From NCBI GenBank assembly GCA_009781235.1, contig WQYM01000001.1, positions 1 to 56,019 on the forward strand: a stretch of DNA of 56,019 bases, read 5' to 3'. Every line of letters begins with the position of its first letter. Positions within the stretch are counted from its first letter, which is position 1. The DNA is from Bacillota bacterium (GTDB lineage Bacteria; Bacillota; Clostridia; Christensenellales; Pumilibacteraceae). The notes under the pieces were generated by a model, which saw only the letters and a list, made by a program, of their open reading frames with translations, was not told the origin of the DNA and did not search any database. Position numbers and translations under genes: made by a program. Below, piece after piece: positions 74 to 53,736 of the stretch.

Positions 74-123
74 AATAAGCAGTCCGACGCAAGACGTCGG
101 GGAATAAAACCCGGAGAGATTTA
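73..123 (+). repeat. 51-nt block CAATAAGCAGTCCGACGCAAGACGTCGGGGAATAAAACCCGGAGAGATTTA, copy 1 of 2
   Basis: It matches 33917-33967 at 50 of 51 positions. It contains the hairpin CCGACG-CAAGA-CGTCGG. Confidence 0.9.
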
Positions 124-251
124 CAATTTGCAAATTTCGGATGAGATTTTGAGTATGCTGCGGAAACAGCGGCCGGAACAAAAGAACAAATATTGTGAAC
201 CCACAGACACATATCCCTAATTTGTAAATCGTAAGTTGTAAATCGTAAATC
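118..251 (+). mobile_element. heptamer-armed hairpin element, gene-less copy
   Basis: Left arm GATTTACAATTTGCAAATTT. The core starts CGGATGAGATTTTGAG and contains CCGGAACAAAAGAAC. Right arm AATTTGTAAATCGTAAGTTGTAAATCGTAAATC, partly complementary to the left arm. Confidence 0.7.
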
Positions 252-265
252 TTGAGTCGGTAAAA

Positions 266-305
266 AATCCGGATGACATTTTGCCAATGCCATCCGGATT
301 TTTTA
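266..305. terminator. bidirectional intrinsic terminator
   Basis: AAAAAATCCGGATG-loop-CATCCGGATTTTTT: a 9-bp stem with an A-run and a T-run. It lies downstream of the minus-strand gene ending at 384. Confidence 0.7.
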
Positions 306-358
306 CGTTTTCCGGCGGAGGAGCCAGGCTCCCGCTCTACGATAGATTTTTATCATAC

Positions 359-383
359 GCCGTTTTTCGTTTTTCGTTAACGG
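359..383. repeat. short CGTTTTT heptamer array abutting a stop codon
   Basis: GCCGTTTTTCGTTTTTCGTTAACGG lies directly next to the TAA of CDS 384..1358. The reverse-complement array is at 9702-9732. Confidence 0.6.
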
Positions 384-1358
384 TTAATACTCTGCCTCGT
401 CACCCGCGTCCGGCGGAATGTATTCGCCGTTGTCGTCGCTGCCGCGCGCCCACTTGCGCAGCTCGCAAAGCTTACCGTACAATGTTGTGGTATTCATGCG
501 AATCCAAACGGGCGACAACACCGCCTCGCCGGTCGCCAAATCGTCGGAATCGTACAGGTACATCGCGTATTTTTGAATGACGTTCTGCGAGTCGTTGATG
601 ACGATGCGGACGCGGTCGAAATGCAGCTTTTTAGTCTGCTCTTTGTTTTTCTTGGCCTCGGTGGAATTGTCTTTTACGGTCACGTACGGCTGTTTTAGCG
701 CTTTTTCTTTTGCAAACTCCGCGTCCGCGTCCTTTTCTAAAAGCGTCTTGGCGCGGACTCTGGCGTCGATGCCCTGATGAATCGCCGTGTATGTCGACTG
801 TTCCACAAAAACAAACTCTAGCACAAACCTTCCGGCGCCCGGCGCCTGCATATAATCCCGCAACGCCTGCTCGCTGACAACCTCGCGCTCAACCCGCTCC
901 ACCGTCTTTACGGTCTTGGTAACCTCGAGCCCTTCCTTGTTGATTTTTTTAAAGTCGTCCTTGTCGTAAACCAATTCCTCGGTCTTTACCTTTTGGGTAA
1001 TATACCTTAAATCTCCCACAAAGTTAAACTCCGCCGCGCTTCGAAGCATTGAATGCTCCGTGCCGACCAACCCTTGTTTTAAGAGCTTTGCGTACTCTTT
1101 TTCGAACGTTGACGTGTCCGCAGCCACAAGCCTCTCGTTTTTAACGCTGAGCATCGGAGTAGAGCCGCCGTTGCGGTCATACACGTTGACGTACTGGTAG
1201 CGGGTGAACGCATCGTCTGCGAGCGCCTTGTACGGAATAAACGCCATAACGGCAACGGCGACAACGATAACGGCCAGCACTGCAGCCGTACCAAGGAGCC
1301 ACCACTTTAGGGCGCCTTTTTTCTTGGTTTTTTTAACTTCGGAGATTAGTGTTTCCAT
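384..1358 (-). CDS. hypothetical single-pass membrane protein
   Basis: ORF 384..1508 trimmed to the ATG at 1358 (METLISEV), which has an AGGAAA upstream. The longer form would overlap the ftsH 3' end. Hydrophobic segment WWLLGTAAVLAVIVVAVAVMAF. Confidence 0.6.
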   Translation of the reverse strand: METLISEVKKTKKKGALKWWLLGTAAVLAVIVVAVAVMAFIPYKALADDAFTRYQYVNVYDRNGGSTPMLSVKNERLVAADTSTFEKEYAKLLKQGLVGTEHSMLRSAAEFNFVGDLRYITQKVKTEELVYDKDDFKKINKEGLEVTKTVKTVERVEREVVSEQALRDYMQAPGAGRFVLEFVFVEQSTYTAIHQGIDARVRAKTLLEKDADAEFAKEKALKQPYVTVKDNSTEAKKNKEQTKKLHFDRVRIVINDSQNVIQKYAMYLYDSDDLATGEAVLSPVWIRMNTTTLYGKLCELRKWARGSDDNGEYIPPDAGDEAEY

Positions 1359-1393
1359 AGGTGTTTTCCTTTTTGAATGCAGTAATGATTGAT

Positions 1394-3457
1394 TTATTGT
1401 ATCTTTTCGTATTTTTTCTTGAGCCTTTCCTCGAGCGCGGTTTTGACGTTCTCGACGGATTCGCCCGCCATAATCAAATCGACTTCCTCGGAGTAAATCG
1501 TTTCGCACTCTAAGAGCGTCCGCGCCATTATGTCTAATTCCTTACGGTACTTTGTTAAGACTTCCAGCGCGCGGGTGTACCCTTCCTCGACGATTCGGGC
1601 AACCTCTTTGTCGATTTCGGCAGCCATTTCTTCGGAATAATTGTGCGTCGTGCCGTAATCGCGCCCCAAAAAGACTTCCTGATCCGAGCCGTAAAACACC
1701 TGGCCGACCTTCGGGTTGCCGCTCATGCCCCATTCGGTCACCATGCGCCGCGCCAATCCGGTCACCATGCGGATGTCACCGCTTGCACCCGTCGAAATGT
1801 CCTCAATCACGATTGCTTCCGCCGCGCGCCCGCCCATCGTGGTGGCGATGTCGTCCTTAAAGCACGCTACGGTGTCCATCTGATTGTCATTGGTAGGACG
1901 CGGCCGCGTAAACCCACCCGCGCCGCCGCCGCGTGGGATGATGCTTACCTCGTGCACTTTTAGGCCGCTCTTGCAGGTTTTTGCCACAATCGCGTGCCCC
2001 GCCTCGTGATATGCCGTGACGCGCTTATCGAATTCCGTTACAACGCGCGACTTCTTTTGCGGTCCGAGCGTCGCCTTGTTGATGCCCTCGGAAATGTCGT
2101 TCATCGTGATTTCCGTGCGGTTTTCACGGGCGCAAATGATGGCGGATTCGTTTAACGTGTTGGCAATGTCCGCGCCGGTAAAGCCGTGTGTGATGCGCGC
2201 CAACGCCTGAAAGTCTACGTCTGCCGCGATGGGCTTGCTTCTTGCGTGCACCTTAAAGATGGCCTCGCGCCCCCTAACGTCCGGCAAATGGACGTGCACC
2301 TGACGGTCAAACCTGCCGGGACGCAAAAGAGCCGGGTCTAAGATGTCGGCACGGTTGGTGGCGGCCATCACGATGATGCCCTCGTTGGTCTCAAAGCCAT
2401 CCATCTGTACCAGCAACTGATTTAAAGTCTGCTCGCGCTCGTCGTGGCCTCCGCCCAAACCTGCCCCGCGGTGTCTGCCGACTGCGTCGATTTCGTCGAT
2501 AAACACGATGCACGGCATACTGCGCTTGGCTTGGTCAAACAAATCGCGCACCCTGGAGGCGCCCACGCCGACGAACATCTCCACAAAATCGGAACCGGAG
2601 ATTGAGAAGAACGGCACGTTCGCCTCGCCGGCCACGGCTTTAGCGAACAGCGTTTTTCCGGTTCCGGGAGGCCCGACCAGCAGCACGCCGCGCGGGATTT
2701 TTGCGCCCACTTTGGTGAACTTTTGCGGCGATTTAAGGAATTCGACGATTTCGGCCAATTCGACCTTTTCTTCCTCGGCGCCCGCAACGTCGGTAAATTT
2801 TACCTTAAGGTTGGCGGCCTGATGCGTTTTGGTCTTGCCAAAGCTCGTCGCCTGCTTGTTTTGGTTGGAGATCGAACGGTAGATGATGACGGCGATGATA
2901 GCAAACAGCAGCAGCGCTCCGATCGGGTAGATGAGATTCCAAATTGCGCCGTCATCCCGGTTGTTGGGGTTAATCTGGATAAACCTTCCGTCTTCCTTGC
3001 CCGCCTCCTCGCTTATTTTTCTAATATAATCCGCTTCTATCTCGCCCGCAAGCTCGGCGTACCGTTTTTTGAATTCTATCTCGCGGTCTATTCCCTCCGG
3101 GATGCCCGCCTTCTTGATTTCTTCGAGCACGTAGACGGTTGCCGCCGTCTCCACCCGGAACCGAATATCTGCCTTAATCCGATCGTTGTAATCGTCAAAT
3201 TTTGCCTCCAGATAAGCCCTGCCGTACGCAAAGGCGTCGTAACCGCTTTTCTTCGTCGAATTCCGATACTTGACCTCTACCTTATCGTTGTTAATCTTGA
3301 CTTCCTTAACGTTCCCTTTTTCCATCTCGATTAAGATGTCCGAAATCGGCACCTCTTGGGTCTGGTTCATCGAGCCGTACGTAATAAAAACAATCGTAAG
3401 AATAATGGCAATAAGAATTATCCCTGGAATAATGATTCTTGTTTTATTGGATTTCAA
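1394..3457 (-). CDS. ftsH: ATP-dependent zinc metalloprotease FtsH
   Basis: Walker A GPPGTGKT, Walker [10 protein letters not shown], zinc motif HEAGHA and two TM segments. TTG start preceded by GGAGG. Confidence 0.95.
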
Positions 3458-3570: not shown

Positions 3571-3603
3571 AATTATTCCGGGAATTATTCCGGGAATTAT
3601 TCC
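3571..3603. repeat. 3 x GGAATTATTCC(G) tandem repeat overlapping a stop codon
   Basis: AATTATTCCGGGAATTATTCCGGGAATTATTCC. The TAA of CDS 3597..4343 lies inside a repeat unit. Confidence 0.85.
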
Positions 3604-4343: not shown

Positions 4344-4360
4344 AATTTTTACCTCTTAAA

Positions 4361-4516
4361 AAATTACACATTACAATGTACAAATTACAATGTACAAATT
4401 ACAATGTACAAATTACAAATGCGGACTTATTTTGATAGCGGTAGGATTGGATTTGCGAACCAAATCAAGGTACAAACGAAAATAATTCGATATTTGTAAT
4501 TTGTAATTTGTAATTT
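4361..4516 (+). mobile_element. heptamer-armed hairpin element (ATTACAA arms), gene-less copy
   Basis: Left arm 4361-4420 holds repeats of (TGTAC)AAATTACAA. The core starts GCGGACTTATTTTGATAGCGG. Right arm 4492-4516, ATTTGTAATTTGTAATTTGTAATTT, contains the stop of CDS 4515..5363. Confidence 0.75.
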
Positions 4517-5363
4517 ATTTTAGCTGTTCATGATTGCTAAAATCCTTGATTCTTTTGTAACTTTCGTCGTCCGAAAAATCTCTTGTATCCTCCACATAGC
4601 CGCCCATGCGTTCGATGGCGTTGCGGATTTCCGTATATTCGACGTAAGAGCAAGACGCAAGCTTTTTATACAGGATTTCGGCGGCGCGCTCGTCCCCATA
4701 CTTGCCCAAATACCCCGCATAAAGCGGGATATTGCCGCCGGATGTAAATAAATCCAAAAGTAATGCGTAGGTGCGCTCGTCTTTTTCGGCATGCAATAAA
4801 ATTTCGGCGCAATATTCCTTTTGACGTGCGGAAGCGTTTTTAGCCCCCTCCCACAACAGCGGCGCGGCCTCCGCCGCAAACGGTGCAAGAGCCTCGATGA
4901 TCGCATCGCAAAGCTTTGCGTCGGACGCGGGGTCGAATAAAATCCGCACATAGTCGGGAATGGGGGGAGCAATGTCGTGCTCGGAGAGGAAAGAGACAAT
5001 TTCGGTGAGGAGTGAGAGATTGTCCGCTTCTTTCTTTCCCGGATCGCTCTTTGCAATCTGCCGCTTCAATATCTCCCTGCACTCCCCCGCCGCCTCTTCC
5101 ATGCGGTCGAGCAATAAGGGACACGGGGCTTGGTTTTTGCCGTGGGTCTCGCAAAACATTTCAACCATCACCCGGGCGTCGCCGATTGCGGAAAAGTACG
5201 CGCGCGGCGAAATGCCGCCAAGACCTGCGTTCGGCGCGTCTGCCCACTCGGCGTACAAATCCCGAGCAAAATCCTCGGGCTCGCGAGCGGAATTCGCTGC
5301 CGTTTCGGCGTACTTTTTGTAGGCGCACACCAAATATTTTTCAAAATCCTTATTAAAATCCAT
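4515..5363 (-). CDS. hypothetical protein
   Basis: 282-aa ORF that overlaps the upstream gene by 11 nt, an operon-like arrangement. I recognise no family motif. Confidence 0.6.
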   Translation of the reverse strand: MDFNKDFEKYLVCAYKKYAETAANSAREPEDFARDLYAEWADAPNAGLGGISPRAYFSAIGDARVMVEMFCETHGKNQAPCPLLLDRMEEAAGECREILKRQIAKSDPGKKEADNLSLLTEIVSFLSEHDIAPPIPDYVRILFDPASDAKLCDAIIEALAPFAAEAAPLLWEGAKNASARQKEYCAEILLHAEKDERTYALLLDLFTSGGNIPLYAGYLGKYGDERAAEILYKKLASCSYVEYTEIRNAIERMGGYVEDTRDFSDDESYKRIKDFSNHEQLK

Positions 5364-7239
5364 CTTCTGACTTTTTGCCCGGCTTCGGAGTTTTCGGCGC
5401 TTTTGCCTTTTTGGGCACCTTTTTCGTTTGGGGAGCCTCCGCGTTCAATTTATCGTATAATACCATAAATTCTTCCTCGGAGCAATTAAAAACCTCGCAC
5501 GCATACGGAATCAGAGAAAAAATTTTGTTAATATGCGATTTATACGCCAAAACCGCCGCAGCCGCATTCTCGTTGCATTCCGTTACCCCGGCCGCCTCTA
5601 AGCTCTCCGATACTTTTTTATACCAAAAATTTAGTTTTCGGTCAAACCCCGAATCGATAAACGCCAACGCGCTGTAGACCTTGCGATACGCAGCCAGCAT
5701 CGTCAGGTTGCGGTACCCCTTGGCAGGGACGGCGGGGCGATACCAATGAATTTGATGGTTGACGGTCATTTGAATCTCGCGCACGCGCTCGCAGCGCAAT
5801 AGTTCAAGAAACATTTCTTTTTTGGGAATAATCGGGTAATCGGGATCCAACAGCAGCTCCCGGACAATCGGATAACCCTCCGGATCGCGCGAAAGAGCGC
5901 GGCCGAGCGCCAACGAGTACACATTCCCCGGCGTAATGCCCCACTGCACCGCTTCGGCGAGGAGCTCATCCTTTTCCATCGCGCGTACCAGCTTACCCGT
6001 TCCGGACACTCGCTCGAGCGTTTTTTCTATCAGTTCGCCGAACCGCTTTGCCTCGGCTTTGGGCAGTTCGGGAATCATTTCAAAAAAGAGTGAGGAGTGA
6101 GGAGTGAGGGGTGAGGAGTGATTGCTAGAATGGTTACCGCTCTCATCCAAAAATGTACGCTGTGCATTGCGTGTCGTGCATTTTTCCCTTCCCATCCATC
6201 GTTCCTCACTCCTCACTCCTAACTCCTCACTCTCCGTAACACCCATCGCCTTATCTATCTCCCGCGCGTAATGCCTTACGGTGATGTCGGACGGGTACAG
6301 CGTTTGCAAAATCACGGCGGCGTCCTTAGCCTCGCTAAATTTCCCGAGGTTCGCCGCCGCCAACACGAGCAAAAGAAGCAGCTCGCGGTCGTAGGGCATA
6401 AAACCCAAGGCGCGGCGAAGGTATTTGTACGCCATGCCCTGGGCGCCGACCTGCGCGGCGCACAGGGCAACCCGCGCCGTCTCGGGCCACCCGTCAAAAT
6501 CAAGGACATCTAAGGCGGCAATCGCGGCGCGTGCCTCCGCCTTGCGGCCGTCCATTTCCAGCGCCAAAATCCGGGTCGAAAGCGCGTACAGGTTTTGCGG
6601 CTCGCTTTCTAAAACGCGATTGCATACCGCAAGCCCTTCCTCCACATTCCCCTCGCCGATTTCTATCAGCGCCAGATAGTTTGACGCTTCATTGAATTGG
6701 GCGCTGGACTGGGGAACGGAGAGCAAAATCCGGCGCGCAAATTCGGTGTCGGCCGAGCATAAAAGCTGTTTGGCCGCCTGTACGGCGTGCCTCGCGTCGT
6801 CTTTTTTTAAAAGGCGAAGGTGCGGCGCGGGGTCGTCGCCACTCTTTTTTAAAAGCCCCAGGTCAATCGGCTCGAACCCGTCTTCGGGAAGCAAAATTCC
6901 CGCCTCGACGGCAAAATTTAAGTAATAGGCCGCCTGTTCGGGCATCTCCATCAACGCATAGTTTTTAACCAGCCCGTAATACACCTCGTCCAACCCGTAA
7001 TCAAACGCCGTCAAAAAGTAATATTCGCGGTTGGATTCGGGAAACAGCCCCATCTCCGAATAGATGGCGGCAATTTCAAGGCGTATCGACAAATCGTCAT
7101 CTCCGTACGGGTCGTCCGAAAGTCTTTGAGCGCGGCGCAAAAACTCCAGACTGCCGATATAATCGCCGGCGTCCGCTTTATCGATTGCTTTTTGATAATA
7201 ATACTCCGCCTCGCGCGTGAATTGTTTGAGCTTCTTCAT
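5353..7239 (-). CDS. TPR-repeat protein with unknown C-terminal domain, carrying a 48-aa repeat-element insert
   Basis: The N-terminal half has TPR-like helices. There is an ATGA-type overlap with the upstream gene at 7236-7239. The insert EELGVRSEERWMGREKCTT...PHSS is encoded by 6088-6232. Confidence 0.75.
   Translation of the reverse strand: MKKLKQFTREAEYYYQKAIDKADAGDYIGSLEFLRRAQRLSDDPYGDDDLSIRLEIAAIYSEMGLFPESNREYYFLTAFDYGLDEVYYGLVKNYALMEMPEQAAYYLNFAVEAGILLPEDGFEPIDLGLLKKSGDDPAPHLRLLKKDDARHAVQAAKQLLCSADTEFARRILLSVPQSSAQFNEASNYLALIEIGEGNVEEGLAVCNRVLESEPQNLYALSTRILALEMDGRKAEARAAIAALDVLDFDGWPETARVALCAAQVGAQGMAYKYLRRALGFMPYDRELLLLLVLAAANLGKFSEAKDAAVILQTLYPSDITVRHYAREIDKAMGVTESEELGVRSEERWMGREKCTTRNAQRTFLDESGNHSSNHSSPLTPHSSLFFEMIPELPKAEAKRFGELIEKTLERVSGTGKLVRAMEKDELLAEAVQWGITPGNVYSLALGRALSRDPEGYPIVRELLLDPDYPIIPKKEMFLELLRCERVREIQMTVNHQIHWYRPAVPAKGYRNLTMLAAYRKVYSALAFIDSGFDRKLNFWYKKVSESLEAAGVTECNENAAAAVLAYKSHINKIFSLIPYACEVFNCSEEEFMVLYDKLNAEAPQTKKVPKKAKAPKTPKPGKKSEDGF
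6088..6232 (-). mobile_element. heptamer-armed hairpin element (GAGTGAG/CCTCACT arms) inserted in frame in a CDS
   Basis: The arms are 6088-6120 and 6204-6232. The core is homologous to the one at 29451-29595. The core start on the minus strand is AACGATGGATGGG. Confidence 0.85.
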
Positions 7240-8436: not shown

Positions 8437-8478
8437 GCAGTAATGAATGCAGTAATGCATTCATTACTGCATTACTGC
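8437..8478. repeat. GCAGTAAT-repeat hairpin without core, overlapping a stop codon
   Basis: GCAGTAATGAATGCAGTAATG-CATT-CATTACTGCATTACTGC. The TAA of CDS 8472..9653 lies in the arm. It probably acts as a terminator-like hairpin. Confidence 0.75.
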
Positions 8479-9653
8479 TCCAAGATTCTCATGAAAAATT
8501 CAACCCCGTACAATAGGGCACTCTCGGAAAACCCGAACGTGTCCGAATGCAAGGGAGAAGAAAATTCGGCGTCTTTGATGCCAAGCCACGTAAGGCTGCC
8601 CGGGATTCTTGTCAAAAAGCAGGCAAAATCCTCCGCCGTATAACGCGGCGCGGCCGCTTTAAGATTCGGCGCGGCGAGACGCACGCGGGCAAGCGCCGGA
8701 GCGGCATTAATAAGCGGCGGGCAAACCGCGTCGGTACGGAGCTCGTGCGACGTTCCGAATTCCGCGTCGGTTCTCTTAAGAAATTCCTCAAGCCGCGCCA
8801 TGTGCGCCTCGTAATCCGAAAAGTATCTTAGCGTGCAGAGAGCCTCGCTTGAGCCCGCAACGACGTTGCGCGCTGTTCCGCCGGTAACGGCGCCCACGTG
8901 GAAGAGCGTTGACAGCGGTTGGATTTTTTCCGGTAGTTGGTGATTGGTGGTTGGTGGTTGGTCGGCAGATGGACTTGATGGATGCGAATCCAAAACCTTT
9001 TCACCATTTGCCATCCACCATTCACCATCTACCAATTGCGCCAGCGGCTTCAGCGCGTCTATCCCCTTCTCTTTCTCGGCGCAATGGGCGGCACAGCCGC
9101 GAAACTTTATCGAAAGCTCCACAGCGCCCGCCATCATCGCGCCGACACAAGAGGCAAACTCGCCGACGTATAAGGTTGGGTCGAGATGCAGCGCGTAGAT
9201 TTCGGATACCCCTTCAAGCGCTCCTCCGGCAATCATTTGCTCGGCGCCGCGCGCGCCCTCCTCGCCGAATTGGAAAATCGCGCGGATGTTTTGCGGGGGC
9301 TTTTCTTGGGTCAAGATGTCGCACAGCGTTAACAGGATGGCGGTGTGCCCGTCGTGTCCGCACGCGTGCATATTGCCGCTTTGGGAGGCAAAGGGGAGCC
9401 CCGTTTTTTCGGCAATCGGCAGCCCGTCGATATCGGCACGAAAAGCTATGGCATTGGAGGTATCTCGCCCTTCAAAATCCGCGATAACGCCCGTCAGGAT
9501 TTTGCGGTACCGGATTCCGCGCGCCTCTAAAAACGCGCAAATATAGCCTTGCGTCTCTACCTCGTAGCCGCAAAGCTCCGGGATGACATGAAGCTCACGC
9601 CTAACCTGCGTACAAAGCTCCGCTCTATCCAAAACGGATGGACGAATCTCCAC
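8472..9653 (-). CDS. M20D-family amidohydrolase (N-acyl-amino acid amidohydrolase-like) with an in-frame repeat insert
   Basis: MHACGHDGH motif and a LH..PEL start region. The start is uncertain (GTG at 9653 proposed). The longer ORF to 9860 runs through REP-like repeats. Confidence 0.75.
   Translation of the reverse strand: MEIRPSVLDRAELCTQVRRELHVIPELCGYEVETQGYICAFLEARGIRYRKILTGVIADFEGRDTSNAIAFRADIDGLPIAEKTGLPFASQSGNMHACGHDGHTAILLTLCDILTQEKPPQNIRAIFQFGEEGARGAEQMIAGGALEGVSEIYALHLDPTLYVGEFASCVGAMMAGAVELSIKFRGCAAHCAEKEKGIDALKPLAQLVDGEWWMANGEKVLDSHPSSPSADQPPTTNHQLPEKIQPLSTLFHVGAVTGGTARNVVAGSSEALCTLRYFSDYEAHMARLEEFLKRTDAEFGTSHELRTDAVCPPLINAAPALARVRLAAPNLKAAAPRYTAEDFACFLTRIPGSLTWLGIKDAEFSSPLHSDTFGFSESALLYGVEFFMRILEQ
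8933..9035 (+). mobile_element. heptamer-armed element (TTGGTGG / CCACCAT arms) inside the amidohydrolase CDS
   Basis: The arms are 8933-8962 and 9002-9035. The core is CGGCAGATGGACTTGATGGATGCGAATCC. It is translated antisense to the element as DGEWWMANGEKVLDSHPSSPSADQPPTTNHQLPEKIQ. Confidence 0.7.
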
Positions 9654-9701
9654 AACTGCATTATACCCTATTGCCGCCGTCTTGTCAACGAATCCGCAGG
9701 A

Positions 9702-9732
9702 GCGAAAACAAAAAACGAAAACGAAAAACGAG
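9702..9732. repeat. CGAAAAC/CGAAAAA heptamer array
   Basis: GCGAAAACAAAAAACGAAAACGAAAAACGAG, the reverse complement of the array at 359-383. Confidence 0.6.
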
Positions 9733-9779
9733 GGATGGGATTGGGAAGCCGAAAAGCATGGGCGTCCGTAAACCCAACC

Positions 9780-9864
9780 GTAGGGGTCGCAAGTCCACTG
9801 TGCGGCCCGCACCTCATGAAAAAATTGATTCCGGCGGGTCGCACAGTGGACTTGCGACACCTAC
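9780..9864. repeat. REPIN-like doublet: GTAGGGGTCGCAAGTCCACTGTGCG ... CGCACAGTGGACTTGCGACACCTAC
   Basis: Two inverted palindromic units bounded by GTAGGGG and CCTAC. Confidence 0.8.
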
Positions 9865-9906
9865 GAGGCAGTGTCCTGAGAGAATGATTTTTGATGCCGA
9901 CACCTC

Positions 9907-10013
9907 GTAGGGGCGGATTGCAACCCGCCCGAAAACGCAGTGGAGCAGGCTATCATTTGGGCCAATGAAAGCGCATTTCTCATAATTGCGGGCGGATTGC
10001 CATCCGCCCCTAC
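9907..10013. repeat. REPIN-like doublet: GTAGGGGCGGATTGCAACCCGCCC ... GGGCGGATTGCCATCCGCCCCTAC
   Basis: Inverted palindromic units. The same unit recurs inside mfd at 32709-32782. Confidence 0.8.
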
Positions 10014-10040
10014 AATGGGTTTAACAGCCACCGTTTTTCG

Positions 10041-16072: not shown

Positions 16073-16074
16073 AA

Positions 16075-22720: not shown

Positions 22721-22745
22721 TTTGTTCACCAATGATGTCGCGAAC

Positions 22746-22875
22746 AAAATTATAAAATATAAAATATTAAATATAAATTATGGATGAATATTTGAGTAAA
22801 ACAAGTGTTTTTGACAAATAACACGGCAATCAGCAGCCTAAATTTATATTATATATTTTATATTTTATATTTTTT
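22746..22875 (+). mobile_element. heptamer-armed hairpin element (ATAAAAT arms), gene-less copy
   Basis: The arms are 22746-22779 and 22840-22875. The core starts ATGGATGAATATTTGAGTAAAAC. It fills the dus-mazG intergenic gap. Confidence 0.75.
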
Positions 22876-23531: not shown

Positions 23532-23569
23532 GGCGCCAGTATGGCACAGGTAGAGGAAAAAGTCAAGAT

Positions 23570-23688
23570 AAATTACAAATTACAAATTACAAATAAGGCT
23601 CTTGCACTACTTCACTACCGCACTATTGCACTACTGCACTACCGCACTATTGCACTACCGCACTACCGCACTACCGCACTACCGCACT
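23570..23688. repeat. two different heptamer arrays side by side (3 x ATTACAA, then about 12 x GCACTAC/GCACTAT) without core or partner arm
   Basis: AAATTACAAATTACAAATTACAAAT-AAGGCTCTT-GCACTACTTCACTACCGCACTATTGCACTACTGCACTACCGCACT... Confidence 0.9.
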
Positions 23689-26211: not shown

Positions 26212-26266
26212 TTCTTTACTCCAACTTTGTTTTATTTATATAATATGCATTATATACGATTTGGGA

Positions 26267-36147: not shown

Positions 36148-36210
36148 GGGCGAGGCACGAGGGCGAGGCACGAGGGCGAAGCACGAGGGCGAGGCACGCC
36201 TCGCCCCTAC
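36148..36210. repeat. 3 x GGGCGAGGCACGA tandem units ending in a GGGCGAGGCACGCCTCGCCCCTAC palindrome
   Basis: It has the same REP unit as 11519-11632, here with one half-site amplified. Confidence 0.85.
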
Positions 36211-38297: not shown

Positions 38298-38326
38298 ATA
38301 ATAACACATCAGATTCGCCTTGTCAA
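38298..38326 (-). promoter_or_regulatory. sigma70-type promoter for the GH2 gene
   Basis: On the minus strand: TTGACA - 17 nt - TATTAT, followed by an AGGAG RBS. Confidence 0.6.
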
Positions 38327-38374
38327 CAAGATAAAATATGAAATACAAAATATAAAATATGTTTTTTGGACTTC

Positions 38375-44387: not shown

Positions 44388-44458
44388 GTGACCCGGTCAA
44401 TGCGTGTCCCGTGACCCGGTCAATGCGTGTCCCGTGACCCGGTCACCGTGCACGGGAC
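44388..44458. repeat. 2.5 tandem copies of the 23-mer GTGACCCGGTCAATGCGTGTCCC ending in a hairpin
   Basis: The copies are 44388-44410, 44411-44433 and a partial copy at 44434-44458 (GTCCCGTG...CACGGGAC). Confidence 0.85.
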
Positions 44459-44557: not shown

Positions 44558-44564
44558 GAGAATT

Positions 44565-44660
44565 CAGTTTTCAGTTTTCAGTTGTCGGTTGTCAGTTGAA
44601 AGAAGATGGATTTGTATCCTGTCCCCCGAGCCCCGAATCCCGAACCCCGAACCCCGAAAA
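44565..44660 (+). mobile_element. two-array element ((CAGTTTT/CAGTTGT)n - GAAAGAAGATGGATTTG - (CCCCGAA)n)
   Basis: The arrays are 44565-44597 and 44623-44660. It ends 8 nt from the stop of the acyl-CoA synthetase gene. Confidence 0.75.
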
Positions 44661-46332: not shown

Positions 46333-46370
46333 TGTGGGAACTCCTTATATCGTGCGTTAGAGCTTTTATT

Positions 46371-46720
46371 AGTGCAGTAGTGCAATAGTGCAATAGTGCA
46401 ATAGTGCAGTAGTGATGGTTTCTATTCTGTCGTTGTATTTTTAGATAGCAAATAAAATCTTGTTTATTTCTGCACAACCTCTTTTTATGTCATAATACGA
46501 TTGGGCATCTATATATCCCGTCGCATACAGTAGCTCAATCCAATACTCACACTCCGTCGCTTCTTTTAAAGCAATACCAATCTTATTCGCAAAGTCTCTC
46601 TTGCTAACCGCGCGATTTGCTTCAAATACATTTGCGCCGACACTCGTTCCGGAACGTACAAGTTGTTATTGTCACTCACTTTTCATCCTCCACTACTGCA
46701 CTACTGCACTATTGCACTAG
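46371..46720 (-). mobile_element. heptamer-armed element (AGTGCAG/GCACTAC arms) carrying a truncated four-helix-bundle gene
   Basis: The arms are 46371-46414 and 46691-46720 and are complementary. On the minus strand the interior starts GAGGATGAAAAGTGAGTGA (RBS, ATG, 3 codons, stop). Confidence 0.8.
46441..46665 (-). pseudogene. N-terminally truncated four-helix-bundle (23S rRNA IVS-protein family) gene
   Basis: My own translation is QLVRSGTSVGANVFEANRAVSKRDFANKIGIALKEATECEYWIELLYATGYIDAQSYYDIKRGCAEINKILFAI*. It matches the family pattern RSxTSIGANxxEA...SKxDFxxKxxIALKEAxETxYWLxLL. Confidence 0.75.
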
Positions 46721-47778: not shown

Positions 47779-47889
47779 GGTGACTCCTTTTTCACTTAAA
47801 ACTTAAAAATGAAAACTTAAAAATGTTGAATGATTATGGATAAGGAGACAAAAAACATCCTCCATTTTTCAGTTTTAAGTTTTAAGTTT

Positions 47890-48411
47890 TCATTGACTCT
47901 TCCCTATCCTAAACGCCTTCATATTCAGCTCAATCATGTCCGCGCGCTTGGCGGAAATGGCTTTTACGAGGGCGGCTTTGACGGTTTCTTCGTCCTCCGC
48001 CGCCAAAACCTTGCCCATCATGATGATGTTGGCTAGGCTTGCCATTCCGTTATCGGAGGCCAATTGCGTTGCCGGCACGTACACGGCGCAGACGTCGGCG
48101 CGGTTCACTTTGCGGCCGATCAGCGTGGAATCGACAAAAATGGTGCTGCCGGGCTTTGCCGCAGACTCGAACTTATCGAGCGAGGGCAAATTCAGCGCAA
48201 CCAACACGTCGGAAGCGTTGACAATGGGCGAACCGACCGGATCGTCCGAAATAATTACCGAGCAATTCGCGGTTCCGCCGCGCATCTCCGGGCCGTAGGA
48301 TGGCAGCCAACTGACCTGTTTGCCCTTGGTCAGCCCTAAATACGCTAAAAATTTACCGGCGAACAATACGCCTTGGCCGCCGAACCCGGCGAGTAGGTAT
48401 TGGGTAGTCAT
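47890..48411 (-). CDS. 2-oxoacid:ferredoxin oxidoreductase gamma subunit
   Basis: The N-terminus carries GFGGQGV. The start was trimmed to ATG 48411, which has a GGAG RBS. Confidence 0.85.
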   Translation of the reverse strand: MTTQYLLAGFGGQGVLFAGKFLAYLGLTKGKQVSWLPSYGPEMRGGTANCSVIISDDPVGSPIVNASDVLVALNLPSLDKFESAAKPGSTIFVDSTLIGRKVNRADVCAVYVPATQLASDNGMASLANIIMMGKVLAAEDEETVKAALVKAISAKRADMIELNMKAFRIGKSQ

Positions 48412-48463
48412 GGTGATAATCTCCTTTTTCAATACGATAATCAATCCTTAGTGCACTATTGCA

Positions 48464-49210
48464 CTATTGCACTTTACTGCGGTCTTTGTACACTCCCACC
48501 GGGTAATACGGCAACATTTTTTCCTCTAACCACTTTAGGGCGGCCGTCGGGGCGAGGCCCCAGTTGGTGGTGCAGGTGGAAAGCACCTCGATTAGAGAAA
48601 AGCCTTTGTTGTTTACTTGGTTTTCGAACGCCTTTTTAATCGCCTTTTTGGCGCTACGCACGAATTTAACGTTGTGGACGGAAACGCGCTCCAAATACTC
48701 CGGGCCGTCTAACGTTGCCAGCATTTCGCACACTTTTATCGGGTAACCGCAAAGCGAGGGGTTGCGGCCGTAGGGAGAGGTCTGCGTGACTTGGCCCGGG
48801 AGGCTGGTGGGCGCCATTTGGCCGCCCGTCATGCCGTAAATCGTGTTGTTGATAAAAATAATCGTGATATTTTCGCCCCGCGCCGCCGCGTGCACGGTTT
48901 CCGCCATGCCGATGGACGCCAAATCGCCGTCGCCCTGATAGGTAAAGACGATGTTGTTAGGGTCGGCGCGTTTAATGCCCGTGGCCACCGCCGGAGCCCG
49001 ACCGTGCGCAGCTTGCGCCATATCAAAATTGTAGTACTCATAAATGAGCACCGCGCAGCCGACCGGCGCGACGCCGATTGTTTTGCCCTCGATACCGAGT
49101 TCGTCCACGGCTTCGGCTACAAGGCGATGCACGATGCCGTGCGTACAGCCCGGGCAATAGTGCAGGGGCACGTTTGAGAGGGATTTGGGTTTTTCAAAAA
49201 CTGTTTTCAT
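48464..49210 (-). CDS. 2-oxoacid:ferredoxin oxidoreductase beta (TPP-binding) subunit
   Basis: YCPGCTHG and YQGDGD motifs. The start was trimmed to ATG 49210 (MKTVFEKP), which has a GGAG RBS. The longer ORF runs into the repeat arm. Confidence 0.9.
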   Translation of the reverse strand: MKTVFEKPKSLSNVPLHYCPGCTHGIVHRLVAEAVDELGIEGKTIGVAPVGCAVLIYEYYNFDMAQAAHGRAPAVATGIKRADPNNIVFTYQGDGDLASIGMAETVHAAARGENITIIFINNTIYGMTGGQMAPTSLPGQVTQTSPYGRNPSLCGYPIKVCEMLATLDGPEYLERVSVHNVKFVRSAKKAIKKAFENQVNNKGFSLIEVLSTCTTNWGLAPTAALKWLEEKMLPYYPVGVYKDRSKVQ

Positions 49211-49228
49211 AGAATAATCTCCATTTTG

Positions 49229-49399
49229 AATGATAAATGATAAATTATAAATGATAAATGTCGGATGGGTTGACTTCCGGAACAAAAGAATTACGCTCTT
49301 TCACAAGCATACAACATCAATAATTTATCATTTATCATTTATCATTTATCATTTGTCTATCATTTATCATTTATCATTTATCATTTATCATTTATCATT
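49229..49399 (+). mobile_element. heptamer-armed hairpin element (ATGATAA/TTATCAT arms) between the alpha and beta subunit genes
   Basis: The arms are 49229-49260 and 49324-49399. The core starts TCGGATGGGTTGACTTCCGGAACAAAAGAA. The right arm encodes the last residues and the stop of the alpha subunit. Confidence 0.85.
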
Positions 49400-50477: not shown

Positions 50478-50631
50478 ATTTACAATTTACGATTTAAAAT
50501 TTACAAATTAGGGATAAGTGTTTTTCGGTTTAAAAGCAAAGTTCTTTTGTTCCGGGCACTCTTATCGGGCTGCCGCAAAAAATCCGTCAATAGTTTGTAA
50601 ATTGTAAATCGTAAATCGTAAATCGTAAATT
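50478..50631 (-). mobile_element. heptamer-armed hairpin element (ATTTACG arms), gene-less copy
   Basis: The arms are 50478-50509 and 50594-50631. The reverse complement of the core aligns with the core of 118-251 (shared CCGGAACAAAAGAAC, CGGAT and TATCCCT). Confidence 0.8.
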
Positions 50632-50657: not shown

Positions 50658-50864
50658 CTATTTTTGGACACTGATCACGCAATCAGGGCACATCGTCGCA
50701 CAAAAAGCGCACGAAATACACAGCTCTTCGTCCAACACGACCGCCGGGTGGTGGCCTTTTGCGTTAATCGCGTGTTTTGCGATCCCGATAATTTTTTTCG
50801 GGCACGCCTCGATGCACAGGCCGCAGCCCTTGCATAAATCCGTTTGAATGATTACTTTTGACAT
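50658..50864 (-). CDS. 2 x [4Fe-4S] ferredoxin-type delta subunit
   Basis: CKGCGLCIEACP and CISCAFCATMCP. Confidence 0.88.
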   Translation of the reverse strand: MSKVIIQTDLCKGCGLCIEACPKKIIGIAKHAINAKGHHPAVVLDEELCISCAFCATMCPDCVISVQK

Positions 50865-50897: not shown

Positions 50898-51125
50898 CCG
50901 CACCGGAGGTGCGGAATGTGGGTAACCCGGGGTTAAGCGTAGCGCAACCCCGGGTGAAGGAAAACGCCCTCTCTTGCGCACCGTAGGTGCGCGACCGGTG
51001 GTATGTTTTGTTGCTTACCGGATTTCGGGTCGCGCACCTACGGCGCGCAAGGCCGCCGTTCGACCGCGCCCCGGGTTACGCTACGCTCACCCGGGGTTAC
51101 CCACATTATACGCCTTCGGCGCATT
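50898..51125. repeat. about 230-nt compound palindrome (outer GGGTAACCCGGGG... arms, inner GCGCACCGTAGGTGCGC units)
   Basis: The outer arms are 50916-50954 and 51069-51106. The inner units are 50974-50996 and 51028-51050. Flanking hairpins are CCGCACC-GGA-GGTGCGG and GCC-TTC-GGC. Confidence 0.8.
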
Positions 51126-51535: not shown

Positions 51536-51766
51536 CTAGTCAATTAAATCTTCAAAAGAACAATTAAAAAAATCCATGAGCAAGCATATTTTCGTTAAAG
51601 TCGGTTCACTTTCGCCTCTTAGCCAAGCAGACACTGTTGTTTGATCAACTGAAACTTTCGATGCCAATACTGTTTGACTTATATTATTATCATTCATAAA
51701 TGCTTTCAAGTTTTCGATGAACGCCCGTTGATAGTCTTTCATGTAACTTATTATAGGGAAAAGCAC
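51536..51766 (-). CDS. XRE-family HTH protein
   Basis: ISQTVLASKVSVDQTTVSAWLRGESEP helix-turn-helix. The start is uncertain (GTG 51766 or ATG 51742). Confidence 0.7.
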   Translation of the reverse strand: MLFPIISYMKDYQRAFIENLKAFMNDNNISQTVLASKVSVDQTTVSAWLRGESEPTLTKICLLMDFFNCSFEDLID

Positions 51767-51835
51767 CTAAACCTGTTGACCTAGGGAAAATTCCCTGATA
51801 TAATAAGCATAGAAAGATATGAGCGTTTTTATTGC

Positions 51836-52060
51836 TTAATTCTCCTTGCCCAAAAGATAGTCAATCGTAATATTCAAAGCCGTTGAAATCCTGACCAGCA
51901 TTTCACAATCGGGCTCCCGGTGATTTTTTCCTATCGCCTCATAATTTTGATACGCTCGTAAAGGAATATCGAGCATTTGCGCCAATTTTTTCTGCGTTAG
52001 GCCGTTACATAACCTTTCTTCCTTTAGTCGAATTGAAACAATCTCCATAAACAGTTGCAT
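51836..52060 (-). CDS. XRE-family HTH protein
   Basis: LTQKKLAQMLDIPLRAYQNYE helix-turn-helix. There is no clear RBS, so it may be leaderless. Confidence 0.7.
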   Translation of the reverse strand: MQLFMEIVSIRLKEERLCNGLTQKKLAQMLDIPLRAYQNYEAIGKNHREPDCEMLVRISTALNITIDYLLGKEN

Positions 52061-52139
52061 TATAACTCAAATTGAGTCATAATGCTTTTATGCCGCTCAG
52101 TTTGAGCGATATAAAACCACCATGGAAGGAGAACTGCAA

Positions 52140-52370
52140 ATGAACAAACAAATGTGTAAAGCAATCGCCAAAAAGCACAGCGTAAGCGTAGAAGAAATAA
52201 AAAAAGAAATGCAAGCGGCAATTGACGCCGCTTATGTTTTCCCCACGCCCGAGGCTATGCAAATACCGCGCAAAGGCGAAATTCCAACCATTGATGAATT
52301 TATCGAATATGTGGCGAAACAAGTGGTTGCGGAGCGCAATACGGACGATAAAAACGGAAACGATTTGTAA
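52140..52370 (+). CDS. small Spo0A_C-like protein
   Basis: MNKQMCKAIAKKHSVSVEEIKKEMQAAIDAAY...PTIDEFIEYVAKQV resembles the Spo0A C-terminal domain pattern. AGGAG lies 8 nt before ATG 52140. It is divergent from the XRE gene. Confidence 0.55.
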   Translation: MNKQMCKAIAKKHSVSVEEIKKEMQAAIDAAYVFPTPEAMQIPRKGEIPTIDEFIEYVAKQVVAERNTDDKNGNDL

Positions 52371-52489
52371 ACAAACCGTTCCCGCTCAACCGCAATTGTT
52401 TTTTGTAATCTGACTTAGTAAAACCCTGGGGGCCGCACTTCCCGAGCGACCCGCTACGGATTTCCGCGCACTTTTCCTTTTTCATTTTT

Positions 52490-53245
52490 TTACCCGAATC
52501 TTCCCGTAATATAATCGTTTGTCCTCTTGTCTTTCGGGGCCGAGAAGACCGACGAGCAGACGCCTTCCTCGATGAGGTCGCCTTTCAGCATAAACGCAAC
52601 GCGGTCGGAGACGCGCACCGCCTGCTGGGTGTTGTGCGGCGCGAGGATTACGGTAAGGCGGGATTTTAATTGCGTCAGGGCTTCCTCGATTTTTGCCGTA
52701 GAGATGGGGTCGAGCCCCGAACACGGGCGGTCTAATAATATTACCTCCGGGTCAAGCGCCAAAACCGTGGCGATGCACAGTCGCTGCTGCTGGCCGCCGG
52801 AAAGCGAGCCGGAGGGCAGCTTTAGCCGGTCGTTTACCTCGTCCCACAGCGCGGCCGTCGTCAACGCTTTTTCCACTATTTCTGAAAGCTTTTGCTTGTT
52901 TTTGATGCCGCTGCGGCGCGGGCCGTAAGAGACAAAATCGAAAATCGACAACGGAAGCGGCCGGGGGATGTCGAACACCATGCCCACTTTACGCCGCAGC
53001 TCCGTTACCACGCAGTCCGGAGCAAAAATATTTTCGCCGTTCAACAAAATCTCGCCCGTGTGGCGCGCCTCATGGTTTAGGTCGCACAGGCGGTTTATCG
53101 AGCGCAGCAACGTGGAAATCCCGCTGTTGGCAGGACCGATTACCGCCAAAATGGCGTTAGACTCGACCGTCAAGTTCAAATTCTTGATGACTTGCTTGTC
53201 GCCGTAGTAGAAGTTGAAATCTTTGATAACTATTTTAGGCATCAT
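52490..53245 (-). CDS. pstB: PstB-like phosphate ABC ATPase with degenerate catalytic motifs
   Basis: It is collinear with PstB (FYYG, LSGGQQQRLCIA, DYITGRFG). However Walker A reads GPANSGIS (no Lys) and Walker B reads ILLDRPCSGLD (Glu to Arg). The start was trimmed to ATG 53245. Confidence 0.85.
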   Translation of the reverse strand: MMPKIVIKDFNFYYGDKQVIKNLNLTVESNAILAVIGPANSGISTLLRSINRLCDLNHEARHTGEILLNGENIFAPDCVVTELRRKVGMVFDIPRPLPLSIFDFVSYGPRRSGIKNKQKLSEIVEKALTTAALWDEVNDRLKLPSGSLSGGQQQRLCIATVLALDPEVILLDRPCSGLDPISTAKIEEALTQLKSRLTVILAPHNTQQAVRVSDRVAFMLKGDLIEEGVCSSVFSAPKDKRTNDYITGRFG

Positions 53246-53291
53246 TGTGTGAGTCAATCTCCATTTGCAAAACATTGGCATTCGGTATCGT

Positions 53292-53736
53292 CGGGGTTCG
53301 GGGTTCGGGATTCGGAATTCGAAATTAGTTTTATGTATCAAGTTTTTTAATTAAGGCGTTTATCATTTGACCGATTCGGGCTACAAGACACAAGCAATCC
53401 TCAATATCAGTATCTGACAAATATCCTACATCTACACAAAGAAGACATTGAGTCTCCAGCTCGCAACTTGAGCTTCTTGATATGGCTAAAAACTGAATGT
53501 ATTCTTTCGTTGAGTTTCTAGAATGCCCTTCTGCAATATTCGACGGTATAGATACCGCGGCACGACACATTTGGCTTGTTAATCCGTATTGTTCGTTGCG
53601 CGGCAACCTCTTTGTAAGCAAATATACTCTTTTTACAAGTTCTCTACTTACTTGCCAAACTTCAAGCTCCTTGTAGTTTTTTATCACTTCTGAATCTCCC
53701 TAAATTCGAATCCCGAATCCCGAACCCCGAACCCCG
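53292..53736 (-). mobile_element. heptamer-armed element (GGGGTTC/CCCCGAA arms) carrying an intact four-helix-bundle gene
   Basis: The arms are 53292-53326 and 53702-53736, with 24 perfectly complementary bp plus a partial extension. It fills the pstA-pstB gap and ends 2 nt from the pstCA stop. Confidence 0.85.
53331..53687 (-). CDS. four-helix-bundle protein (23S rRNA intervening-sequence protein family)
   Basis: YKELEVWQ, YGLTSQMCRAAVSIPSNIAEGHSR, EYIQFLAISRSS..ELETQ. GTG start with an AGGGAGA RBS. Confidence 0.88.
   Translation of the reverse strand: MIKNYKELEVWQVSRELVKRVYLLTKRLPRNEQYGLTSQMCRAAVSIPSNIAEGHSRNSTKEYIQFLAISRSSSCELETQCLLCVDVGYLSDTDIEDCLCLVARIGQMINALIKKLDT

Follow-up and report, generated by a model that had tools for sequence, protein, structure and literature searches.

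The stretch of DNA analysed here, hereafter the window, comprises 56,019 nucleotides of the metagenomic contig WQYM01000001.1 (NCBI GenBank assembly GCA_009781235.1) from an uncultured member of the Bacillota (Christensenellales, Pumilibacteraceae), and carries housekeeping and carbohydrate-utilisation genes, nearly all of which are located on the minus strand. Distributed between and within these genes are approximately 25 loci, occupying some 6% of the window, that consist of tandem arrays of 7-nt units, a few having a period of 8 nt. With respect to cargo, they include one intact and one decayed copy of a gene for a four-helix-bundle protein, here termed the intervening-sequence protein (IVP), and about 20 gene-less miniature copies. 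The loci are interpreted here, with a probability of roughly 0.7, as a family of selfish palindromic DNA elements of the intervening-sequence (IVS) type, similar to those IVSs of 23S rRNA that bear an open reading frame (ORF), together with miniature derivatives.

The intact IVP gene (53331-53687, minus strand) is located inside an ABC-transporter operon and encodes a protein of 118 residues which matches PF05635 (‘23S rRNA-intervening sequence protein’, E 2.8e-38), TIGR02436 (‘four helix bundle protein’, E 1.2e-36) and the pentameric Xanthomonas protein XCC0516 (PDB 2GSC, E 4.5e-24). Weaker matches, below the cut-offs, were returned for models of Avd, the accessory protein of diversity-generating retroelements (DGRs; PF22296, E 9.6e-07; NF033474, E 1e-07), and IVP and Avd are indeed homologous pentameric four-helix-bundle proteins (PMC10053308). 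The full element (53291-53737, minus strand) has the arms (TCGGGGT/TCGGGAT)n and (CCCCGAA/TCCCGAA)n, which are near-perfect inverted copies of one another over ~35 nt, form a closing stem of ~38 bp around the whole gene (folding z -7.6), and are composed of units that decay towards the core in matching order on both sides. The decayed element (46365-46719, minus strand) exhibits period-8 arms, i.e., TAGTGCAR and YTGCACTA according to Tandem Repeats Finder, with an arm score of 26.5, around an N-terminally truncated IVP remnant (46444-46659, minus strand) that covers positions 37-105 of the PF05635 profile (E 3.6e-18). BLASTP returned no alignment between the two IVP copies, which thus belong to different subfamilies; PF05635 as a whole numbers 22,244 clusters at 50% identity (E 1e-3 or better).

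A scan of the window for tandem periods of 3 to 12 nt returned 24 strong arrays of period 7, four of period 8 and zero to three for each other period, as against none in shuffled sequence, while a laxer scan returned 42 arrays. Tandem Repeats Finder reported dozens of period-7 arrays at coordinates in agreement with those of an earlier, sequence-only reading of this DNA, whose proposal of one family with a shared arm-core-arm architecture is borne out. The uniform 7-nt period that it described applies to most arrays, period 8 being found in the arms of 46371-46720 (TAGTGCAR) and in the arrays at 23599-23688 and 48446-48473. Copies beyond those originally listed are present at 47794-47890, 32459-32599, 32693-32820, 40577-40626, 23565-23688, 26263-26302, 26710-26779 and 38326-38360, and by hand count about 12 of the ~18 intergenic spacers of at least 60 nt harbour a heptamer element.

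When the left arm of each paired locus was compared with the reverse complement of its right arm, 12 of 18 loci scored above the 95th percentile of cross-element comparisons, and the stems of complementary copies fold with -25 to -80 kcal/mol (z -4.7 to -12.3). The arms are thus complementary in these twelve loci and not in the other six, and the distinction drawn in the sequence-only reading between such copies and non-complementary variants is supported by the copies at 21891 and 40307, neither of which forms a stem (z +1.2). Its conserved core start was also recovered, since 11 of the 18 elements have GGATG no more than 16 nt inward of an arm, compared to an expectation of ~3.5% per element (P about 2e-12). 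The motif GGATGA...TTGAGT is plausibly what remains of a ribosome-binding site and start codon, as may be seen by comparing GGAGGATGAAAAGTGAGT in the 46371 copy with GGGAGATTCAGAAGTGATA in the intact copy. Alignment of the cores, the check proposed for their relatedness, gave 7 of 78 pairs above 99% of the null (~0.8 expected); the alignable cores constitute just two subfamilies, {6088, 29451} and {118, 50478, 49229}, the latter having CCGGAACAAAAGAA in common, and the other copies share the 5' motif alone. Paralogous copies occupy different sites, those at 6086 and 29448 being located in different genes and those at 118, 50478 and 49229 being intergenic.

The same architecture extends well beyond the window. 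Twenty-nine IVP homologues were aligned, and 80 loci (designated by L numbers below) were fetched from species-representative genomes of Bacteroidota, Bacillota, Planctomycetota, Acidobacteriota, Nitrospirota, several Proteobacteria, groups of the Candidate Phyla Radiation (CPR), a cyanobacterium and a Methanophagales archaeon. An array lies within 160 nt of the IVP gene in 54 of these 80 loci, and period-7 arrays occur at 1.30 per kb within 150 nt of the IVP gene compared to 0.081 per kb elsewhere in the same loci, representing a 16-fold enrichment; the sole other period enriched near IVP genes is 8, the remaining periods being essentially absent. Complementarity between the upstream and downstream flanks exceeded the 99th percentile of a cross-locus control in 42 of 73 loci, the units of the two arms were equal within one mismatch in 18 of the 22 loci for which both could be scored, and 30 of 35 upstream arms were rich in G on the coding strand. 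The same design was found in 19 viral contigs and in plasmids, where cyanobacterial matches dominate (e.g., Calothrix with arms GGGTGTA/TACACCC and Nostoc edaphicum with arms GTAGGGA/TCCCTAC), and heptamer hairpins without a gene are present in other phyla too (L015, L027 and L044). An Rfam search placed none of the 80 IVP loci in an rRNA gene, and the window similarly contains no rRNA. Most IVP homologues are located on contigs of ~0.5-2 kb, as is expected of multi-copy repeats.

The usual layout of these loci consists of a host stop codon, an arm, ~22 nt, the IVP ORF, a further ~22 nt, the complementary arm and the ribosome-binding site of the next host gene, and in 58 of 72 loci the IVP gene points in the same direction as the genes on either side. 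This orientation bias seems to be tied to expression of the IVP gene, since the gene-less copies of the window (118-50630) stand in either orientation relative to host transcription (~7 plus and ~5 minus, as judged from the GGATG end). Such a layout could also be that of host-serving cis-regulatory modules, i.e., operon-internal signals for processing, stability or insulation (RNase III sites, G-quadruplexes or sites for RNA-binding proteins) with IVP as their regulator, and the exact placement between stop codon and next ribosome-binding site in sense orientation is in keeping with this explanation, as are the conservation of orthologous sites across species (including those reported in PMC4692102), the ability of TTAG/CTAA-type units to stop all three frames, and the translational regulation proposed by MacGregor for TAACTGA repeats (PMC4679880). 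We nevertheless consider it unlikely, because the coding sequences of Mfd, Dus, DnaE and PglX-like genes harbour copies, some copies are decayed or have lost internal sequence, a whole unit is present or absent as an indel (see below), gene-less copies adopt either orientation, and the distribution is patchy over bacteria, an archaeon and viral contigs; furthermore, the unconserved unit sequence is hard to square with a single sequence-specific binder.

Certain sub-motifs recur in arm units from many phyla (L002-L081 and the window): AGTG was counted 15 times against 4.3 expected and TTAG 11 times against 2.6, AG is present in 47 of 59 units, and ATG is depleted in the 5' arm. These common sub-motifs and the depletion of ATG may reflect a shared binding preference or avoidance of start codons. 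A test for selection of stop codons in arm units gave only a mild effect in the 5' arm (P 0.05) and a stronger one in the 3' arm, the latter being attributable to the TTAG/CTAA motif.

Comparison of related loci indicates how the arms change. Close IVP relatives have arms in common (L007/L014, L056/L059, L045/L048 and L008/L031), which argues that arms are inherited and subsequently homogenised rather than made anew each time, and arm units also recur between copies within the window. The period-8 loci L008, L031 and L062 (with L012) rank with the most closely matching pairs of proteins and form a protein clade, so that the period is itself a trait of the lineage. The number of units varies between orthologous elements, for example 10 versus 2 units in L045/L048, and when two nearly identical assemblies of a metagenome-assembled genome (MAG) from a related Firmicutes are compared over 20 kb, the sole indel amounts to 21 nt, or three units, of an upstream arm. 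In other cases both arms differ jointly, as with GTCGCCA in L023 versus AGATGCC in L024 and L011, whose proteins are 72-77% identical, and at the orthologous site of L056/L059. Inheritance, slippage and concerted change together explain why the period is the same and the sequence different, with no need for de novo arm synthesis. Consequently, the suggestion that arms are generated by slippage rather than simply copied was correct as regards unit number and incorrect as regards copying, and the description of the arm sequences as unrelated is not tenable.

That orthologous arms differ between species and yet remain complementary (L056/L059, L023/L024) might point to a structured non-coding RNA family whose stem is maintained by compensatory changes, and all complementary copies do fold as long stems with strongly negative z. 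However, among the stem mismatches at 1,894 positions in 53 loci, G.U (73) is no more frequent than A.C (70), i.e., there is no wobble bias, while the cores are mostly unconserved, copies within ORFs appear to be translated, gene-less copies occur in both orientations and no Rfam family is matched: a scan of the window at gathering score gave zero matches, and a tRNA scan of the window also returned nothing. A non-coding RNA family is therefore regarded as very unlikely, and the covariation in favour of RNA structure that had been read from the window alone is not upheld. Instead, complementarity looks as if it is kept by DNA-level copying or conversion between the arms, or by symmetric selection.

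Two comparisons identify the elements as discrete units. In the Nostoc edaphicum plasmid pNe_5 the nrdB-nrdA spacer measures 494 nt (L106:1405-1898) and contains both arms and an IVP gene, antisense to its neighbours, as opposed to 13 nt in Calothrix NIES-4105 (L107:1006-1018); the flanks are 85% identical and the breakpoints coincide with the outer ends of the arms. Comparison of related genomes for presence/absence polymorphism, as advocated in the sequence-only reading, thus revealed a whole unit that differs. TTAG is found on both sides of the filled Nostoc site, although the flanks are only 85% identical to those of the empty site and no convincing target-site duplication is discernible there. 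Derivation of the arms from the target site was considered and ruled out, as the arms lie inside the presence/absence unit and are common to related copies. The second comparison concerns a related Firmicutes MAG (L082), where a gene-less copy of 76 nt (15700-15775) located 5.8 kb from an IVP-bearing element (9886-10415) agrees with that element in its arms and in ~20 nt at either inner end, and represents a textbook internal-deletion derivative. Together with the decayed element at 46365-46719, this copy supports the earlier proposal that short copies are gene-less derivatives of four-helix-bundle-gene elements.

These observations also bear on the simplest account of the arrays, according to which they are ordinary simple-sequence repeats that arose by independent polymerase slippage favouring 7-nt units, with no element involved and any pairing accidental. 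Heptamers are an over-represented long repeat in many bacteria, for which slippage has been proposed (Mrazek 2007, as cited in PMC4692102), and unit number does slip. Yet the 16-fold enrichment beside a single gene family, the complementarity of the arms, the shared cores and inner-end motif, the presence or absence of a whole unit and the deletion derivative that retains both inner ends already contradict this account, which we hold to be scarcely credible.

Several copies are located within host genes. The Mfd ORF of the window comprises 1300 residues compared to 1121 in its closest homologues (49-54% identical), and the ~180 additional residues are due to four insertions (32693-32820, 32459-32599, 31758-31943 and 29448-29595, numbered 1 to 4), each of which matches repeat elements and all of which are absent from those homologues. 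Insertion 1 is made up, in frame, of a (GGGGAAT)n array and a hairpin resembling repetitive extragenic palindromic (REP) sequences, and insertion 2 is an in-frame half element (plus strand) with an AATTAGG/AATGAGG arm and GCGGATGATTTTGA, followed by two REP-like CGTAGGGG hairpins. Insertion 3 combines non-complementary arrays (31758-31847; CGGAGGTGAGGT; TCGGGGT-like) with an in-frame short hairpin (31859-31943, plus strand), whose GGCACAA and TTGTGCC arms enclose a 28-nt core with CCGGATGAG and which folds with -62.2 kcal/mol (z -12.3). Insertion 4 (29448-29595, minus strand; -80.1 kcal/mol, z -9.3), likewise in frame, is a paralogue of the 147-nt gene-less hairpin at 6086-6232 (minus strand; -68.5 kcal/mol, z -7.5), which lies in frame in the ORF of a TPR protein (5353-7239). 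The two have the same GAGTGAG and CCTCACT arms and cores that are ~75% identical (alignment score 25, compared to 11 for the 99.9th percentile of the null), each is open solely in the frame used, and they are read in the same register to give similar peptides (SEELGVRSEERWM...PHSS), with a TGA-to-TTA variant unit at the exact spot where an array of this type would stop the frame.

Further in-frame copies are found in three other ORFs. The hairpin at 8932-9039 (arms TTGGTGG and CCACCAT, z -4.7) lies in an M20 peptidase ORF (8472-9860), where it adds sequence that is absent from PDB 1YSJ. In the Dus ORF (21698-22747), the non-complementary variant at 21891-21991 (minus strand), consisting of (GTTGACG)4 and (ACTGTCC)4 (fold z +1.25), corresponds to an insertion of ~23 residues relative to PDB 1VHN, in the linker between the barrel and the helical domain. 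The C-terminus of a DUF2130 ORF (40266-41882) contains a bipartite tandem pair (40307-40488, minus strand) of the form (TTCGGGG)n, a core of 19-21 nt and (ACTGACC)n, which has no stem (z +1.2), constitutes a 75-nt higher-order repeat and specifies the peptide SGQW..GGQLKED.LIPRIPNPE twice; the ATTCCTC/ATTCCTA array at 40577-40626 is in frame in the same ORF. All 11 in-gene copies (in Mfd, Dus, the M20 peptidase, the TPR protein and DUF2130) are open in the frame used, while 6 of 8 intergenic copies are stopped in all six frames. We read this as survivorship, whereby only frame-keeping insertions would persist and be translated.

In-gene copies are not peculiar to the organism of the window, as a (CAATCAC)n array lies inside the ORF for the large subunit of carbamoyl-phosphate synthase in the MAG L082 (2650-2700). 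Furthermore, in five or six of 99 loci a complete IVP gene is nested in a large host ORF that remains open throughout in frame +2, the hosts being an Eco57I/PglX-like methylase (L085-L088; L085-L087 from viral contigs; L087:6-3980, 1324 residues) and DnaE (L095:1113-4949, 1279 residues). An alternative frame free of stops exists in only 8 of the 99 IVP genes, most of which are the nested cases; this argues that the host proteins are translated through the element. As a separate observation, the FtsH ORF of the window (1394-3457) encodes 645 residues relative to a profile of 595 positions, suggesting ~50 extra residues.

The closest known counterparts are the 23S rRNA IVSs of Leptospira, Coxiella burnetii and Brucella, which similarly contain a PF05635 gene and a terminal inverted-repeat stem around the ORF (~28 bp there, 38 bp at 53291-53737). 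In Coxiella, the IVS harbours an S23p ORF within a 28-bp terminal stem (Warrier et al. 2016, PMC4990558), and two to three tandem GACAGAT heptamers, of which strains differ by one unit, with RNase III cutting at the first repeat (PMC4990558); tandem heptamers that are variable in number form the 5' part of the stem there. In contrast to these IVSs, the window copies and the 80 loci are situated in protein-coding operons or ORFs and not in helix 25 or 45 of 23S rRNA, most window copies are gene-less, and excision by RNase III has been demonstrated only for 23S IVSs (PMC4990558).

Published heptamer repeats represent a second counterpart. Xanthomonas carries 186 GGGAATC arrays, 70 of them in convergent pairs and of lengths that vary between species, and Nostoc carries GGGGAYT arrays, all of which were interpreted as quadruplex motifs and said not to be linked to mobile elements (Rehm et al. 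2015, PMC4692102), while TAACTGA repeats were described from Beggiatoaceae, cyanobacteria and Bacteroidetes (MacGregor 2015, PMC4679880). The short tandemly repeated repetitive (STRR) sequences of Calothrix and Nostoc and the repeats of Xanthomonas and Beggiatoaceae share with the present elements tandem 7-mers that are mostly intergenic and close to start or stop codons, and the window arrays, consisting of over-represented, mostly intergenic 7-nt units in head-to-tail arrangement, are STRR-like in this sense. STRR unit sequences were reportedly given by Mazel and colleagues in 1990. Of the window units, GGGGTTC/GGGATTC and CAACTGA-like ones resemble the published units, and such arrays flank IVP genes on plasmids of Nostoc and Calothrix, even though the published repeats were described as G-quadruplex or regulatory motifs with no tie to IVP genes or to hairpins with a core. 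Elhai and colleagues are said to have described, in 2008, mobile Nostoc repeats of 21-27 nt inside tandem heptameric repeats, with a shared hairpin structure and reportedly no link to the four-helix-bundle family or to in-frame insertions; these small dispersed repeats resemble the short-core copies (19-28 nt) at 31859, 40307 and 44565.

Miniature transposable elements with inverted repeats (MITEs) and REP-derived hairpins (REPINs) are comparable in being short, non-autonomous, hairpin-forming palindromes that are tied to a gene-carrying partner and often located in intergenic spacers. The window elements have in common with MITEs the terminal inverted repeats (12 of 18) and the internal-deletion derivative, though not a cognate transposase; they differ from both in that a partner transposase of the DDE or HUH type is not known, convincing target-site duplications were not seen and the tandem-repeat arms vary by copy, and they lack the conserved GTAG head and short GC-rich palindrome of REP/REPIN systems with their REP-associated tyrosine transposases (RAYTs). 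Rickettsia palindromic elements (RPEs), reportedly described by Ogata and colleagues in 2000, are selfish DNA that is inserted into protein-coding genes without breaking the frame and is tolerated as additional peptide segments, and they are not known to have heptamer arms or an associated gene. The QMITEs of Coxiella are similarly palindromic selfish DNA that lies in frame within genes for proteins, where it is put up with as additional peptide (PMC5896051). The present elements have no sequence relationship to RPEs or QMITEs, and in their case host ORFs even contain entire IVP genes, which they read through in another frame. DGRs, finally, possess Avd, a homologue of IVP, but no reverse transcriptase, template or variable repeat lies beside IVP in the window or in the inspected loci, and the elements are thus not DGRs. 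The statement in the sequence-only reading that no described element class has these features must thus be revised, as the pieces, i.e., the Coxiella IVS, the Xanthomonas arrays and the cyanobacterial heptamers, are in the literature. A literature search returned no paper that ties heptamer arms to IVP genes, apart from the note on Coxiella.

Taken together, these data are best accommodated by a family of selfish, IVS-type palindromic elements. A full element would consist of a heptamer arm, a short leader with ribosome-binding site and start codon, the IVP gene and the reverse-complement arm, and miniature copies would have lost the gene by internal deletion while keeping the arms and inner ends. 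The comparisons show that the arms are the termini of the present/absent unit and are passed on with it, that unit number shifts by replication slippage, and that concerted change lets the unit sequence drift without loss of the complementarity or of the period, which is 7 (8 in one clade). Within host operons, full elements lie in sense orientation, and in-gene copies appear to survive only where the host frame stays open. The element would presumably be co-transcribed with the host operon, its arms pairing as an RNA stem of 20-40 bp that may be cut by RNase III, by analogy with the 23S IVSs; in-gene copies would be translated as extra surface loops, the IVP pentamer may function as an accessory nucleic-acid-binding factor for spread or persistence of the element, and the mobilising enzyme would act in trans.

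A number of observations weigh against this interpretation. About a third of the IVP loci are without arrays, and the arms are non-complementary in 6 of the 18 paired loci of the window. The lack of a G.U bias argues against strong selection on an RNA stem and so weakens the proposed RNase III step outside rRNA. The sole cargo is the 118-residue four-helix-bundle protein, and a mobility enzyme is encoded neither by the elements nor by the window, the search for a co-occurring transposase or reverse transcriptase having come up empty: Pfam and NCBIfam searches of 30 window proteins returned no transposase, reverse transcriptase or HUH enzyme. Inspection of the sequence revealed no target-site duplication at the paralogous insertions 6086 and 29448, and the databases contain no close relative of the window organism, the next Mfd being 54% identical. 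Many elements occupy orthologous sites in related species (L056/L059, L045/L048 and L007/L014), and 83% of Xanthomonas arrays are common to two species (PMC4692102), which implies that movement is rare; some copies may have been domesticated.

An alternative is a retro-type element without a reverse transcriptase of its own, in which RNase III frees a hairpin RNA, a polymerase or reverse transcriptase acting in trans is brought in by the Avd-like IVP, and telomere-like templated slippage at both 3' ends remakes the arms, automatically yielding inverted tandem arrays. The homology of IVP to the DGR accessory protein Avd (PMC10053308), the sense orientation of full elements in transcribed regions, the apparent lack of target-site duplications, the way in which the arms mirror each other down to variant units, and the missing RNA-wobble bias, i.e., DNA-level copying between arms, would all fit such a route. 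It is however improbable, given that no reverse transcriptase is found near any locus examined, that arms are inherited and common to related copies, so that de novo synthesis is unneeded, and that period and unit behave as lineage traits. A broader and doubtful extension of the selfish-element interpretation is that heptamer-armed IVP elements constitute a ubiquitous, unrecognised class of prokaryotic mobile elements, with the Avd-like pentamer as sole protein, which spread via a hairpin intermediate. In that event RNA released by RNase III would be copied by a polymerase or reverse transcriptase in trans, or single-stranded DNA would fold back, and the periodic arms would be trimmed and regrown by slippage.

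The remaining copies of the window were characterized individually. The intergenic subfamily consists of the gene-less hairpins at 118-251 (plus strand; ATTTACR arms, the left one short; core start CGGATGAGATTTTGAGTA, containing CCGGAACAAAAGAAC; z -1.9), 50478-50630 (minus strand; ATTTACR arms; z -5.2), which is an opposite-orientation paralogue of the former (core score 20), and 49223-49399 (plus strand; AATGATA and TTATCAT arms, the right one grown to ~11 units; core start TCGGATGG, containing CCGGAACAAAAGAA; z -5.5), the core of 118-251 being homologous to those of both others. Other gene-less hairpins are the intergenic copies at 4355-4516 (plus strand; ATTACAA/ATGTACA arms; z -5.3; stopped in all six frames), 22747-22875 (plus strand; AAATATA arms; core start ATGGATGAATATTTGAGTA; z -6.6) and 47794-47890 (minus strand; ACTTAAA and TTTAAGT arms; GGAGGATG at the inner end; z -5.9), and the copy at 26348-26486 (plus strand; TAGCGAA and TTCGCTA arms; z -4.7), which displays GGAT(G/T)A at both inner ends. 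Single arrays are present in intergenic DNA at 26263-26302 (AGGGGCT/AGGGGTT) and 38326-38360 (ATAAAAT-type), and a single period-8 array (TGCACTAT) occupies a 20-nt intergenic gap at 48446-48473. At 23565-23688, the adjacent arrays (AAATTAC)3.6 and (GCACTACY)10.6, the latter of period 8, are mutually non-complementary, each being complementary to the arms of another copy (4361 and 46371, respectively), and the duplicated (AAAATGT)n arrays at 26710-26779 form a 40-nt higher-order repeat followed by a GGATGAACG repeat. The intergenic bipartite element at 44559-44658 (plus strand), i.e., (TCAGTTG)5, a core and (CCCCGAA)5, is the inverted homologue of that at 40307; 40307-40409 (minus strand) and 44559-44658 (plus strand) are located 4.2 kb apart in a composite-like arrangement that encloses an MFS transporter gene and the greater part of the DUF2130 gene.

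A second and separate repeat family in the window comprises REP-like hairpins in which the CGTAGGGG head is conserved and the GC-rich stem varies, found at positions 9779, 9906, 11518, 11626, 18270, 18343, 32521, 32563, 32708, 36204, 44551 and 44665. Three of these lie in frame inside Mfd, and most spacers of at least 60 nt that are devoid of a heptamer element contain such hairpins. The family is also present in the MAG L082 (e.g., GTAGGGGCGGCAATCTGCCGCCCGCAC), and, judging from its GTAG head, may have a partner of the RAYT type at another place in the genome. A palindromic block of ~220 nt (50900-51122), composed of nested inverted repeats (arms of 24-34 nt, 79-96% complementary) with REP-like GTAGG motifs, is situated between a small ferredoxin gene (50658-50864) and two XRE-type HTH genes (51536-51766 and 51836-52060). 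Non-heptamer tandem repeats are found at 36148-36198 (a 13-mer, x3.9, GGGCGAGGCACGA, which runs into a REP-like hairpin), 44388-44445 (a perfect 23-mer, x2.5) and 3571-3603 (a perfect 12-mer, x2.8).

The finding is broader than what the sequence-only reading had put forward, in that it joins four threads, namely the 23S rRNA IVSs with their S23p ORF, the over-representation of heptamers in bacteria, the arrays of cyanobacteria, Xanthomonas and Beggiatoa, and the large, Avd-homologous PF05635 family; the individual pieces are known, and we found no paper that joins them. It follows from this interpretation that heptamer arrays should track IVP genes, that RNase III should process operon transcripts at the arms, and that the IVP pentamer should bind nucleic acid of heptamer periodicity. 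Essential proteins such as Mfd, DnaE, Dus and PglX-like enzymes tolerate the in-frame insertion of selfish DNA, which may even be an entire gene that is overprinted in another frame, and the in-frame inserts both give rise to new disordered loops and mislead annotation. The elements also offer an explanation for broken assemblies, in which most IVP homologues end up on contigs as short as those noted above. If heptamer-armed IVP elements did prove to be a ubiquitous class, this would explain the over-representation of heptamers in bacterial genomes, the role of PF05635 and the origin of those rRNA IVSs that lack an ORF.

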